Of a DNA stretch of 64,000 nucleotides, positions 3,156 through 17,244 are shown piece after piece. Source of the stretch: Bacilli bacterium. Its GTDB lineage: Bacteria > Bacillota_I > Bacilli_A > RFN20 > CAG-826. The position numbers and the translations under genes were made by a program. Position 1 is the first letter of the stretch. The number at the start of each line of letters is the position of its first letter. Below the pieces are notes generated by a model. It did not search any database and was not told where the DNA came from. It saw only the letters and a program-made list of their open reading frames with translations. The stretch lies in contig JAKSUW010000001.1 of assembly GCA_024408565.1 (NCBI GenBank), positions 28,498 through 92,497 on the forward strand, read 5' to 3'.

Positions 3156-4718
3156 TTATTTAGCGGTTTCGCTCGCCCGGTATTCCCGGATAACGTTAAT
3201 CTTAATTTCGCCTGGATAGGTGACACCGGCTTCAATCTTTTCTTTGAGTTTTCTGGCTAATTTAAAGGCCGCATCATCGTTAATTTCTTCTGGCACCACC
3301 ATAACACGAACCTCACGTCCAGATTGCATCGCAAAGGCTTTGGCGACACCTGGTTCTTCCGTACAAACTTTCTCTAACGCTTCAATCCGTTGGATATAAG
3401 TTTCCATGGTTTCGCTTCTTGCGCCTGGACGCGCTGCACTTAAAGTATCAGCGGTGGCAACTAAGGTCGCAATCACGAACTTACTTTCACTATCACCATG
3501 GTGCGAAGCAATCGCGTTCACGACCACATCGGGTTCACCATATTTTTTCGCTAAGCGAGCACCAAGTTCTACGTGAGTGCCATCAACTTCGTAGTCAATC
3601 GCTTTGCCAATATCGTGTAATAAACCAGCGCGCTTGGCAGCGACTTGGTCTAAGCCTAATTCTGCGGCCATAATACCCGCTAAATAAGCAACGTCCATTG
3701 AGTGATCATAAGCGTTTTGACCATAGGAACTTCTAAATTTTAACCGACCGACATAGTCAAGTAATTCGGGAGCAATGTGGGGTAAGCCTAATTTAAAGGC
3801 GGCTTCTTGTCCCGCTTTATGGATTTGTTCATTCATTTCTTCCGCCGCTTTCTTCGCGTACTCTTCAATTCTTGAAGGTTGGATTCTTCCGTCTTTCATT
3901 AAATATTCGAGTGTCCGACGAGCAATCTCACGCCGTAAGGGGTTAAAGGAACTCACGGTAATGACTTCAGGGGTATCGTCGATAATTAAATCAACACCGA
4001 GCAATTGTTCAAGGGTATGAATGTTACGACCTTCACGACCAATAATCCGCCCTTTCATTTCATCACTTGGTAGTTGAACGGTGGTGACACTATGCATCGT
4101 GATTTCGTCTTGCGCATATTTATTAGTGGCTAAAGCAATGAGGTTACGCGCTTTATCCGCGGCTTTTTCTTCCGCTTCTTCTAAGCGTTTCTTCATATAA
4201 CCCGTAATTTCGTTATCCATCTTATCCTTCACTTGGGCTAAGACTTCTTTCCGGGCTTCTTCTTTGCTCATCTTGGCGACTTTTTCAAGTTCGACAATGA
4301 TAGAATCAATCTTCTTTTGAAGTTCGGCTTGTTTACTTTCGGTGACTTTTAATTCACTATCAAGCTTTGCTTGCTTGGCGTCTAAGATCTTTTCCTTTTC
4401 GTTTAGATTAACATCGCGACGTTCGATGTTATTCTCCCGTTGATTAAGTTTGTTTTCTAAGCTCACCACTTCGGCTTTTCTTTCCTTAATCTCTTTGTCC
4501 GCTTCTTGTTTCATTTCGTAAGCGGTTTGTTTGGCCTCGACCTGCGCGGTATGAAGTATTTTGTTACTTCTTTCTTCGGCAGCGGCAATAATTTTTTCGG
4601 CCTTCTTGTTCGCATTAGTACCTTTTTTATTTTGGATAATTAAAAAGATGACTAAACCAATGCACGCTAAAATAGCGACAACGGCAATCGCGAGAAAGGC
4701 TCCTGCTAAACCTGTCAT
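3156..4718 (-). CDS. rny: Ribonuclease Y (N-terminal TM, coiled coil, KH and HD domains).
   Basis: 520 aa with an N-terminal TM helix, a KH motif (GRIIGREGRNI) and an HD domain (HSMDVAYLAG…LLHDIGKA). An AGGAGG RBS precedes the ATG. Confidence 0.92.
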   Translation of the reverse strand: MTGLAGAFLAIAVVAILACIGLVIFLIIQNKKGTNANKKAEKIIAAAEERSNKILHTAQVEAKQTAYEMKQEADKEIKERKAEVVSLENKLNQRENNIERRDVNLNEKEKILDAKQAKLDSELKVTESKQAELQKKIDSIIVELEKVAKMSKEEARKEVLAQVKDKMDNEITGYMKKRLEEAEEKAADKARNLIALATNKYAQDEITMHSVTTVQLPSDEMKGRIIGREGRNIHTLEQLLGVDLIIDDTPEVITVSSFNPLRREIARRTLEYLMKDGRIQPSRIEEYAKKAAEEMNEQIHKAGQEAAFKLGLPHIAPELLDYVGRLKFRSSYGQNAYDHSMDVAYLAGIMAAELGLDQVAAKRAGLLHDIGKAIDYEVDGTHVELGARLAKKYGEPDVVVNAIASHHGDSESKFVIATLVATADTLSAARPGARSETMETYIQRIEALEKVCTEEPGVAKAFAMQSGREVRVMVVPEEINDDAAFKLARKLKEKIEAGVTYPGEIKINVIREYRASETAK

Positions 4719-15110: not shown

Positions 15111-15782
15111 CTAGGCTCCTAATTTATCATTAATAATCTTCATCATTGCCGTAACGACTTCCGGAATCGTTAAAGGCGAAGTATCAAGTTCAATCGCGTC
15201 ATCGGCTTTCTTTAAAGGTGCAAAGTCGCGGTGCGAATCGATATAGTCTCTTTTCTTAACGTCTTCACGAATTTCTTCGATTGTACAAGGAATCTTCTTT
15301 TCCATGTTTTCCTTGTAACGTCGTTGTGCGCGACATTCAACACTCGCAATCATGAAGATCTTCACTTCCGCGTCAGGAATAACGTAGGTACCAATATCGC
15401 GTCCATCCATGACCACGTTATGGGTTTTCGCAAATTCCTTTTGCATACCGGATAAGACTAAACGAATACCTTTCATCGCCGCGATATAGGAAACATTCGC
15501 ATTCACAATCGGCGTGCGAATCTCGCGAGTAACATCTATATCTCCACAATAAACCGTGTTATCAGGTCTTAAATCAATCTTAATATCATTAATTACTGCC
15601 ACACACGCTTTCTCGTCTTGGCAATTAATGCCGTGTTTTAAACAATACCAAGTGACAACTCGATACATCGCACCGGTATCCATATAGGTATAATTAAGTT
15701 TCTTTGCGATAATTTTCGCAATGGTTGATTTACCAGCGGCCGCTGGTCCATCAATCGCTATTCTTACTAATTTCTTTTCCAT
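15111..15782 (-). CDS. cmk: Cytidylate kinase.
   Basis: IAIDGPAAAGKSTIAK P-loop and Cmk-like overall sequence, 223 aa. Confidence 0.93.
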   Translation of the reverse strand: MEKKLVRIAIDGPAAAGKSTIAKIIAKKLNYTYMDTGAMYRVVTWYCLKHGINCQDEKACVAVINDIKIDLRPDNTVYCGDIDVTREIRTPIVNANVSYIAAMKGIRLVLSGMQKEFAKTHNVVMDGRDIGTYVIPDAEVKIFMIASVECRAQRRYKENMEKKIPCTIEEIREDVKKRDYIDSHRDFAPLKKADDAIELDTSPLTIPEVVTAMMKIINDKLGA

Positions 15783-15847
15783 AACAGCAATATTCTATTA
15801 TATTTATTAAACATTGTGTTTAATTTATCACTACATATGTATACATA

Positions 15848-15932
15848 AAGGGCAAAATGATAAAGTGTCCCCATAAGACTAGATTGGTGTGTTATCATTA
15901 GTGTAGAGGGGGGGACTTTTGCCCCTTTTTTA
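15848..15932 (+). other. Candidate structured RNA leader ending in a terminator-like hairpin plus U6, directly upstream of the AT-rich ORF.
   Basis: GGGCAAAA (15850-57) is complementary to TTTTGCCC (15917-24) and GTCCCC (15867-72) to GGGGAC (15911-16). This nested long-range helix competes with a local GGGG/CCCC hairpin followed by T6. A G7 run sits at 15908-15914. Confidence 0.3.
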
Positions 15933-15943
15933 TTTCCATAATT

Positions 15944-16429
15944 ATGAAATTAATAAACATTAAAAAAGAGAAAGATGCCTTAAAGGAATTATCAAAATTA
16001 AAAAGAAGGGAATATGTCTATAGTGAAATTCGAATAGACAACATCCACCTCAAACATTTAAACCTTCTTGTGAAAGACTACATTTTCACTAAAAACGCAA
16101 TATATGTCAGACCGAGTACATTATGGGCAACTATGAAAAGTGGAGGAAGAAATAATTCACATAATTTCCATGCACTGTCTATTGAAGAAGCATTTAAAAC
16201 CCTTAATGCTATAGATCATCCTAAAGAAATATATGAATCCTTAAAAAGAAGCAAAAGATACATTATCGTAACCGATGTTTTGTTTAAGAACAAAATAAAT
16301 ATTATTGTAATAATCGAAAAGGATGTTGCATTAATCAATAAAATAGATGCTAACATTAACAAAATCATTACTATTTATCCAAAAGATAAGATATCTTTGC
16401 TAAACAATAAGTTACTTTACAAAAGATAA
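15944..16429 (+). CDS. Hypothetical protein (161 aa), compositionally foreign (very AT-rich, AGA/AGG and ATA codons).
   Basis: Intact ORF. GC is clearly below that of the flanking genes and Arg is encoded by AGA/AGG, unlike the host genes that use CGN. No Shine-Dalgarno sequence before the ATG. Confidence 0.45.
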   Translation: MKLINIKKEKDALKELSKLKRREYVYSEIRIDNIHLKHLNLLVKDYIFTKNAIYVRPSTLWATMKSGGRNNSHNFHALSIEEAFKTLNAIDHPKEIYESLKRSKRYIIVTDVLFKNKINIIVIIEKDVALINKIDANINKIITIYPKDKISLLNNKLLYKR

Positions 16430-16570
16430 AAGAAAAAGAGAGCCGAACGGTGCTCCAATTGCATTCCATGGACTCTCAATTCAATTATCATTATATATTA
16501 GTATTTAATAAAAACAAGATGGTAATAAAGAAAAACCTTTTTTAGGCACTATTTTAACGAAAAGTTCAAT

Positions 16571-16606
16571 TTGCCATTTATATAATAAATAAGGTATAAT
16601 CTTACT
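16571..16606 (+). promoter_or_regulatory. Sigma-70-type promoter of the ferredoxin gene (TTGCCA-18-TATAAT).
   Basis: -35 at 16571-16576 and -10 at 16595-16600. A GGAGG RBS at 16613-16617 precedes the ATG at 16626. Confidence 0.5.
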
Positions 16607-16625
16607 ACTGTTGGAGGTAGTAACT

Positions 16626-16799
16626 ATGGCAGTTAAATTAAAAGTAAATAAAGACGTATGCATCGGTTGTGGTGCGTGTGTCGGCGCATTCCCAGATGCT
16701 TTCACCTTCGATAACGATGGCAAAGCCGAATGCATTAAAGAAGTCGACAAGGCTGACGAAGTCAAAGCCAATTGCCCTGTTAGTGCGATTTCTGAATAA
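16626..16799 (+). CDS. fer: 4Fe-4S ferredoxin (single-cluster, small).
   Basis: MAVKLKVNKDVCIGCGACVGAFPDAF…ANCPVSAI. The ORF-track start at 16611 is a TTG artefact and the ATG is at 16626. Confidence 0.85.
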   Translation: MAVKLKVNKDVCIGCGACVGAFPDAFTFDNDGKAECIKEVDKADEVKANCPVSAISE

Positions 16800-16817
16800 C
16801 ACTAAAAGCAATAAAGA

Positions 16818-16841
16818 GGCCGCCCGTGTGGCGGCTTTTTT
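16818..16841 (+). terminator. Rho-independent terminator after the ferredoxin gene.
   Basis: GGCCGCC-CGTGT-GGCGGC followed by T6. Confidence 0.75.
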
Positions 16842-16861
16842 AATGATTAAAGTATTAAACT

Positions 16862-16912
16862 TTATATTTATTATATAAATATATTAATAAATTCGCGTCT
16901 TTTAACGCTCTT
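16862..16912 (+). promoter_or_regulatory. Copy C of the conserved ~45-bp promoter-proximal box (…ATAAATATATTAATAAATTCGCGTCTTTTAACGC…), upstream of the 16942 gene.
   Basis: It is the reverse complement of the box found at 38096-38150 and 38672-38725. The CGCGTC core lies about 45 nt upstream of the ATG. A likely -10 TATATAAG is at 16921-16928 and an AGGAGG RBS at 16930-16935. Confidence 0.5.
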
Positions 16913-16941
16913 CCTACATATATATAAGTAGGAGGAATTTT

Positions 16942-17244
16942 ATGGATAAATATCAAAGTGAATTCATGAATGCATTAGAGGTGATGGAGGTTTTAAAAAA
17001 ATGTCCACTAGATATATTTCTTAAGGTGTATCATAAAATTAAAGGAACACCCGGTAAGATAGTAATGAAAAAGAAAACGCACAAAGTTACATTAGAACAA
17101 GTCGTTAATATGATGAACGACGGTTTTAAGAAGATGGACGCGAAAATGGACGCTGGGTTTAAACAAGTTAACACGCGGATTGACGGTATTGAAGCGCGTC
17201 TAGACTATAACGGTCTTAAAAAGTTACCCACCAATTACAAATAA
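16942..17244 (+). CDS. Small coiled-coil protein, paralog of the 38156-38644 protein (the shared C-terminus GFKQVNTRIDGIEARLDY resembles the Mollicutes DUF16 family).
   Basis: 100 aa. The C-terminal 25 aa are near-identical to the C-terminus of the 162-aa repeat protein. Good RBS. Confidence 0.5.
   Translation: MDKYQSEFMNALEVMEVLKKCPLDIFLKVYHKIKGTPGKIVMKKKTHKVTLEQVVNMMNDGFKKMDAKMDAGFKQVNTRIDGIEARLDYNGLKKLPTNYK

Follow-up and report, generated by a model that had tools for sequence, protein, structure and literature searches.

A single-gene module of a stand-alone PBECR/MuF_C predicted endoribonuclease and a structured RNA in a Bacilli genome

In type III toxin–antitoxin systems such as ToxIN, CptIN and TenpIN, an endoribonuclease (RNase) of the ToxN/AbiQ fold is preceded by tandem RNA repeats of 34–36 nucleotides (nt), with a terminator between the two, and the enzyme both binds and processes its RNA. 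Type I systems with 3′-overlapping antisense RNAs include txpA/RatA and bsrG/SR4 of B. subtilis and RNA I/II of the par locus of E. faecalis, and enzyme-type type I toxins are found in SymE/SymR and RalR/RalA. RNases of the BECR fold (Barnase-EndoU-Colicin E5/D-RelE), i.e. RelE, the colicins, CdiA-CT and the PBECR proteins, have, to our knowledge, been described only alongside protein antitoxins or immunity proteins, or else as phage effectors that are injected. Here we analyze a lone gene for a predicted RNase of this fold, together with a structured RNA element at its 3′ end, in a stretch of 64,000 nt of contig JAKSUW010000001.1 (the window), in whose coordinates all positions are given. The window matches a 'Bacilli bacterium' metagenome-assembled genome (MAG). 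Loci used for comparison are referred to by number (L001 and so on).

A stand-alone PBECR/MuF_C protein

The 161-amino-acid (aa) open reading frame (ORF) was confirmed at positions 15944–16429 of the plus strand. The initial annotation had seen no recognizable domain in it, but its product matches Pfam PF18819 (MuF_C) above the cut-off (29.0 versus 27.6 bits, E = 1.2e-6), 34 of 43 relatives match the same family (best E = 1.2e-10), and the predicted structure is MuF_C-like as well. MuF-C is a PBECR domain, belonging to a phage clade of the BECR metal-independent endoribonucleases, and in the PBECR active site a Ser/Thr on strand 4 is paired with a His of the N-terminal helix (Iyer et al. 2017, PMC5512222). 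AlphaFold2 supplied with 43 sequences yielded a model with a predicted local distance difference test score (pLDDT) of 95.8; a run with only 3 sequences reached a pLDDT of 45 and was not used. The model has the BECR core fold, a helix with four to five strands, and carries the extra N-terminal strands of the PBECR type. In a Foldseek comparison with viral models, 141–163 of 161 residues aligned to 'MuF C-terminal domain' regions of phage polyvalent proteins (E = 2e-6 to 8e-4), and because these alignments span nearly all 161 residues, the whole protein corresponds to one PBECR module. Foldseek against the PDB returned nothing significant, and PADLOC, NCBIfam and PHROGs returned nothing useful for the protein.

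Among the 43 sequences, N5, N33 and H76 are invariant and H73, N139, K140 and P146 near-invariant; T143 is near-invariant in a subset of 12. In the model, H73 and H76 precede the core helix and T143 lies in the last-but-one strand, the places expected from the secondary structure, and the catalytic-type signature of His73/His76 and Thr143 appears intact. Fold and family identify the protein as a predicted metal-independent endoribonuclease of the colicin-D/RelE type, and add it to the known PBECR/MuF_C domain family as a new stand-alone member. The earlier guess of a toxin- or nuclease-like gene under RNA-based control points in the right direction, since the gene encodes a predicted RNase module of the BECR fold.

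A word-indexed search of 5.8 billion proteins returned only two close relatives, with 53% and 56% identity. With a full HMMER scan, about 60 clusters of stand-alone proteins of 145–175 aa emerged from 1.84 billion cluster representatives at E ≤1e-10, along with weak matches within giant polyvalent proteins. The homologs come from horse-faeces and rumen MAGs and metagenomes, and tblastn of the protein against 50,697 phage and 72,556 plasmid records produced no match.

A conserved RNA element beside the gene

The best-conserved part of the module lies directly downstream of the ORF. An A-run at 16430–16437, which is a U-run on the minus strand, abuts the stop codon and is followed by a 40-nt hairpin at 16438–16477 (H1), composed of an outer stem GAGAGCC/GGACTCTC, an inner stem of 5 base pairs (bp) and a 7-nt loop TCCAATT (16454–16460). 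The 40-nt core of H1 is identical at 37 of 40 positions in L001 and at 35 of 40 in L003, whereas the nucleotide identity of the ORFs among the window, L001 and L003 is only 59–63%, falling to 39–51% at third codon positions. The A-run adjoins H1 at all loci, even in copies not preceded by a gene. The conserved RNA is found 3′ of the ORF and not in the 5′ leader, where the initial annotation had placed it; the islet outlined there at 15848–16429 is real, but its end at 16429 cuts off the 3′ element at 16430–16520.

H1 is retained where the proteins share just 30–40% identity, and its outer stem then varies by compensatory substitutions, e.g. TGAACC/GGTTCA, GAGCAT/ATGC and GGGCA/TGCCC. Across 12 distinct sequences, 79.8% of the cells are paired, compared with at most 50% in slid registers; double changes occur in five of the seven outer-stem pairs, with a score reached by none of 500 shuffles, and the 7-nt loop is near-invariant. 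In the window no U-run follows H1 in the plus sense, so H1 is not the terminator of the gene. Two other identities for H1 were considered by eye and discarded. As a mimic of a tRNA anticodon stem-loop, its 5-bp stem and 7-nt loop fit, but neither strand has U33 with R37, and as an integron attC site it lacks fitting core sites. DNA-pattern scans of viral contigs gave two chance matches to H1 inside coding genes and none to helix H2.

In L010, L016–L021, L024, L028 and L036–L039, H1 is followed by about 130 more conserved nt forming further helices. RNAalifold on 11 of these sequences predicted 26 pairs, with 94% of cells paired compared with at most 51% when slid; compensatory changes were present in 14 pairs, and the covariation score was matched by none of 500 shuffles. 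A covariance model built from the long forms (R1) matches the window at 16429–16500 with 33.7 bits and E = 9e-6, the internal part being deleted, and both forms finish in the same AT box. The H1 of the window is a short, reduced form of this covarying motif of about 170 nt, and R1 detects no second copy in the 64-kb window. The motif is previously undescribed and absent from Rfam: release 15 has no family matching the short or the long form (window, nine related loci, and the L019 long form at E ≤5).

The motif search covered the loci gathered as relatives of the gene, and in every locus with enough flank to check, the motif lies beside the gene (L011 is cut at the contig end). It occurs once downstream in L010, L016, L018–L021 and L028, twice downstream in L017 and L038, and twice upstream in a higher-GC (guanine plus cytosine) clade whose genes have a Shine–Dalgarno sequence (L024 and L036/L037, with L039 cut by the contig end). 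The tandem copies each have their own promoter boxes and U-run. A second conserved ORF of at least 30 aa was not found among six modules compared, and an XRE-family gene follows in only some loci. As judged from the sequences, the gene has no protein partner, and the RNA is its only conserved partner.

Several further observations concern the arrangement of the element. In L017 (1013–1198) and L023 (~490–680), the second RNA copy is preceded by the last few bases of a gene end (AAAAAATGA) but not by a gene; because only this remnant stands in front, the duplicated unit starts at the A-run. An XRE-family helix-turn-helix gene begins 15–25 nt past the AT box, in the orientation of the RNase gene, in L012 (~2490), L017, L019, L021 and L028, and the AT box can also be read as the plus-strand −10 box of this gene. 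The near-identical modules L019 (~1050–1096) and L018 (~706–718) differ in the length of the A-run before the stop codon, owing to which the L019 ORF reads through H1 (...KKMSINTGSNCLN*). This difference in the A7–8 tract may have arisen artificially, by sequencing error or slippage, or may mark a genuine frameshift site beside the hairpin.

The promoter and terminator signals of the element favor the minus strand. A sigma-A-type promoter is predicted on the minus strand at 16490–16517, with the −10 box TATAAT at 16490–16495, a 16-nt spacer and the −35 box TTGTTT at 16512–16517; both boxes are unchanged in the window, L001 and L003, while their flanks diverge. The pattern TTGnnn-16-TATAAT is found at the same place on the minus strand in 13 of 17 elements, with 12 of 12 positions matching in L008, L015 and L018. 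On that strand, H1 together with UUUUUCUUUU was flagged as a predicted terminator (dG about −16), and H1 folds better there in 9 of 12 sequences, the summed minimum free energy (MFE) being −171 versus −134 kcal/mol. A first count of wobble pairs, 39 G·U versus 3 A·C, was abandoned as a strand call since it rests on three near-fixed positions; the sporadic wobbles number 11 G·U versus 10 A·C and, being balanced, decide nothing. The geometry makes a minus-strand transcription unit likely, which in the window would yield a convergent RNA of about 55 nt (16483 down to 16428), made up of a short 5′ tail, H1 and the U-run. This RNA would overlap the ORF mRNA at its stop codon and 3′ end. The plus-sense copy of the element within the mRNA may also be structured.

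The inserted module and its 5′ leader

The ORF lies between cmk (15111–15782, minus strand) and the 4Fe-4S ferredoxin gene fer (16626–16799, plus strand). In the relative L034 (GCA_002317145.1), whose cmk is 84% identical to that of the window, fer and cmk are divergent neighbors without an ORF between them. As the spacer measures 843 bp in the window but 175 bp in L034, the window contains about 670 bp of extra DNA, and the homology between the window and L001 extends from about 15848 to about 16520, in agreement with this size. The exact ends of the insertion could not be fixed by aligning the empty site to the window, the AT-rich spacers being too diverged. The segment from about 15848 to 16525 (~680 bp, plus strand), delimited by spacer length and L001 homology and comprising the leader, the ORF, the 3′ RNA element and its promoter boxes, is a horizontally acquired single-gene module. 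The idea of a compositionally foreign single-gene insertion is borne out by the empty site in GCA_002317145.1 and by homologs at unrelated genomic positions.

The composition of the ORF sets it apart from the host. Its GC content is 27.1% (27.3% at third codon positions), compared with a host mean of 39.3 ± 2.5% for the 28 ORFs of at least 250 aa in the window, and lies at the 0.24th percentile among all 486-nt segments. AGA/AGG accounts for 7 of its 8 Arg codons versus 17% in host ORFs, and ATA for 9 of its 24 Ile codons versus 4.7%; no purine-rich Shine–Dalgarno sequence is present in the 20 nt before the ATG. GC content, codon counts and upstream sequence all agree with the initial description of an AT-rich ORF that uses AGR and ATA codons and lacks a Shine–Dalgarno sequence.

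Homologs are mostly lone genes, often antiparallel to their neighbors, in unrelated contexts. The L001 copy, from the sister MAG GCA_024408495.1, which carries the closest homolog, lies between tRNA-Asp/Phe and a glycerol-3-phosphate-dehydrogenase-like operon; others are found after tRNA-Asn/Glu, between Fic and DegV, after an ABC transporter, beside rpsL-rpsG, and next to a large serine recombinase. In L001 and L008, direct repeats of about 75–80 bp bracket the module, 730–750 bp apart. The sole candidate repeat around the window module is a 32-nt AT-rich sequence of 75% identity, which would enclose fer as well and probably arose by chance.

In the cmk–fer spacer of GCA_024408495.1 stands instead a gene for a 719-aa Flg_new repeat protein (L032, 1784–3943), and foreign genes seem to have landed repeatedly in this spacer. 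In L008 (1106–2794 and 4012–4656), the module copy directly follows a gene for a 562-aa large serine recombinase and is succeeded by genes for a hexapeptide (Vat-like) acetyltransferase and an XRE/zinc-ribbon protein; an integrated mobile element probably contains this copy or borders on it. In L038, a classical RelB/YafQ type II toxin–antitoxin pair (4064–4613) is located about 200 bp past the two RNA copies, an indication that addiction or defence genes form a small cluster beside rpsL-rpsG-fusA.

The 5′ leader contains the structures proposed initially: a long-range helix, a local GGGG-ACTTTTG-CCCC hairpin with U6, and a G7 tract. The MFE fold of RNAfold is the long helix, pairing GGGCAAAA/GTCCCC (15850–15857, 15867–15872) with GGGGAC/TTTTGCCC (15911–15924). 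The local hairpin (15911–15925) and T6 (15926–15931), on the plus strand, end 12 nt before the ATG and have the GC-rich stem and U-run of a terminator; the hairpin has four G-C pairs only, below the five-pair rule of the terminator scan, and is a predicted terminator. G7 (15908–15914, plus strand) forms the 5′ arm of the leader hairpin and is the sole G run of at least 6 in the 64 kb. The leader folds marginally better than shuffled controls (z = −2.07, 7 of 200; z = −2.76, 2 of 200), but the homologous L001 leader does not (z = −0.34).

The only leader block kept in the window, L001 and L003 is TRTG-n-TATCAT (GTGTGTTATCATT / TGTGATATTAT), in the window a promoter-like box TGTG-T-TATCAT at 15888–15898 on the plus strand (−16 TRTG and −10), from which we infer that the ORF mRNA starts near 15905. 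With this start, the 5′ arm of the long helix (15850–15872) would be outside the RNA. The window leader is about 70% identical to that of L001, and its identity to that of L003 is near the level of unrelated AT-rich DNA. A hairpin with U6 stands just before the ATG in both the window and L001, although the sequences differ (GGGG.../CCCC versus GAGAGGC/GCCTCTC); L016 and L020 have unrelated hairpins with U-runs at the same place, L003 has no hairpin, and several relatives have a good −10 box 6–7 nt before the ATG, predicting leaderless mRNAs. An Rfam 15 scan of 15600–17000 returned nothing near any gathering score and only noise at E ≤10.

The proposal of a riboswitch-like leader that alternates between antiterminator and terminator, with expression tuned by slippage at G7, is very improbable on this comparison. 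Alternative helices are present, with fold z values of −2.1 to −2.8, and a hairpin with a U-run also precedes the ATG in L001, L016 and L020, but the long helix is absent from the L001 and L003 leaders, the conserved promoter-like box stands between its two arms, 3′ of the 5′ arm, many relatives look leaderless, and Rfam offers no match at E ≤10 beyond noise. Nothing supports slippage at G7, a tract that is reduced to GGGG in L001 and missing from L003. In our reading, the 5′ side is built for low, insulated expression and is not a switch controlled by ligand or slippage.

Two observations concern the neighboring genes. The annotated cmk start at 15782 has no Shine–Dalgarno sequence (15783–15800, minus strand), whereas the cmk start in L034 is preceded by AAGGAG; the cmk 5′ region may have been disturbed by the insertion, or the cmk start misplaced. 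Between fer and rpsI, a 100-aa ORF (16942–17244, plus strand) has a good Shine–Dalgarno sequence (GGAGGA), terminator-like hairpins on either side, and no match in Pfam, PHROG, PADLOC or NCBIfam. Because L034 carries an ABC transporter in its place, this ORF may be a second small insert.

Proposed function and rival explanations

We tentatively propose, with somewhat less than even confidence, that the gene and its RNA form a toxin–antitoxin-like or defence module with an RNA partner. The single-gene cassette was acquired horizontally into the cmk–fer spacer, and the RNase would be kept low by its start without a Shine–Dalgarno sequence and by the terminator-like hairpin in a short 5′ untranslated region (UTR). 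The minus-strand promoter, hairpin and U-run would yield the RNA of about 55 nt, convergent with the RNase mRNA and overlapping its 3′ end. This RNA would neutralize the RNase, either as a ligand of the protein (type III-like) or as an antisense partner of the mRNA (type I-like), and the pair would act as a toxin–antitoxin, addiction or defence module. In this scheme we infer the toxicity or tight control of the RNase, the transcription and strand of the RNA, and the neutralizing step. An antisense mechanism suits the geometry of the window but not the clade in which the RNA precedes the gene, and the start region showed no pairing with the RNA. Binding of the RNA to the RNase fits the position-independent linkage, the tandem copies and the near-invariant loop; ToxIN-type systems, however, have another toxin fold, another RNA size and another gene order, and repeats are missing from the window. 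We make no choice between the two.

Several points weigh against this proposal. The promoter match of the window itself comprises 9 of 12 positions and is not significant alone, as 28% of shuffles equal it. Three near-fixed G·U positions in helices H2–H5 (47 cells) favor the plus strand, on which they pair, over the minus strand, where they would be A·C, so the strand signals appear to conflict, promoter and terminator pointing to the minus strand and the near-fixed G·U pairs to the plus strand. A minus-strand RNA would not overlap the mRNA in the higher-GC clade, where the RNA precedes the gene. Complementarity of the RNA to the translation start region of the mRNA was not better than in shuffles (z = −1.9 to +1.5). 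Toxicity is predicted from the fold, the MuF_C of phage Mu itself is considered inactive (PMC5512222), and no PADLOC model matches. The short form in the window could be a relic, and in L021 (2959–3141) and L022 (716–883) the RNase gene copies are frameshifted with premature stops while the 3′ RNA element is intact.

Alternatively, the RNase might not be toxic to its own cell and might serve as a single-gene defence or a domesticated phage effector against foreign (phage) RNA, with the 3′ element a cis-acting 3′ UTR or terminator that stabilizes or insulates the mRNA and an outward-blocking terminator at the 5′ side. We consider this unlikely, though by no means negligible: PBECR domains are typical of phage or conjugative-element effectors, a protein antitoxin is absent, terminator-like hairpins point inwards at both ORF ends, and the near-fixed G·U pairs suit a plus-sense structure in the mRNA. 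A UTR stabilizer, however, has no need of a near-invariant loop and would not form tandem copies with their own promoter boxes, nor sit upstream in another clade; lacking a plus-sense U-run, H1 is not the terminator of the gene, and PADLOC gave no match. It is improbable that the hairpin and the AT box are DNA sites (att-, dif- or transposon-end-like) which move the gene cassette without any functional RNA. Such sites could explain the many unrelated positions of the module, the direct repeats around the L001 and L008 copies, the tRNA genes adjoining several loci, the large serine recombinase adjoining L008 and the strand-neutral counts of sporadic wobbles. They do not account for the five helices of the long form, whose compensatory changes and conserved G·U pairs are typical of RNA, or for the promoter/terminator geometry recurring across loci; moreover, no recombinase travels with the module, inspection by eye found no terminal inverted repeats, and attC core sites do not fit the element.

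Quite improbable, finally, is a decaying, non-functional relic of a mobile element with an open frame due to chance. The window holds the short RNA form only, frameshifted copies exist elsewhere (L021, L022) and the expression signals are poor. Against this, the frame is intact with every family-invariant residue present, and H1 and both promoter boxes are kept in three loci whose ORFs are only 53–56% identical.

The proposal in its strongest form, a new class of RNA-controlled toxin module, is possible but doubtful. In that form, a PBECR endoribonuclease would be neutralized by its own RNA of about 170 nt (40 nt in the minimal form), type III-like but with an unrelated toxin fold and RNA, and would be spread as single-gene cassettes of about 0.7 kb in herbivore-gut Bacilli chromosomes. 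If true, this would add a new toxin fold to the RNA–antitoxin systems and a new RNA family, and the 40-nt minimal hairpin would offer a compact, testable RNA–protein or RNA–RNA pair. Should the RNase prove harmless to its host, what remains is a domesticated phage effector gene whose UTR is unusual. The module shows sub-kilobase single-gene cassettes colonizing intergenic spacers of reduced gut Bacilli genomes.

Comparison with known systems

The module resembles type III systems in that an RNase-type toxin, predicted here, has an adjacent RNA as its sole conserved partner, that the RNA can be tandem, and that a terminator and weak expression signals separate or limit toxin expression. It is unlike them in its BECR fold, which is not that of ToxN/AbiQ, and in its RNA unit of about 170–190 nt (a 40-nt hairpin in the window), which is present in at most two copies and usually downstream; ToxI-like tandem repeats are absent from the window. 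The likeness to type I systems lies in the RNA predicted for the window, which would be convergent, overlap the 3′ end of the toxin mRNA and end at a shared hairpin, and whose loop has a YUNR-type motif (UUGG). Unlike the small hydrophobic membrane peptides of type I systems, the protein is a soluble alpha/beta predicted RNase of 161 aa, the clade with upstream RNA shows no mRNA overlap, and pairing to the start region was not found.

The type II toxins RelE, HigB and BrnT, colicins D/E5 and the CdiA-CT tRNases share the BECR fold but are neutralized by a protein encoded next door, whereas in the six modules compared no antitoxin ORF adjoins the gene. The extra N-terminal strands also distinguish the protein from its RelE, colicin and CdiA-CT relatives and are typical of PBECR. 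In the literature searched, no BECR/PBECR RNase was reported together with a structured RNA dedicated to it. The closest relatives are the PBECR/MuF_C (PF18819) domains of phage and conjugative-element polyvalent proteins, which agree in family model, in predicted structure over nearly the whole protein and apparently in the His plus Ser/Thr active-site pattern, and of which solo versions are known (PMC5512222). In contrast to these, the gene in the window is chromosomal, stands alone in an islet of about 680 bp and is paired with a dedicated structured RNA.

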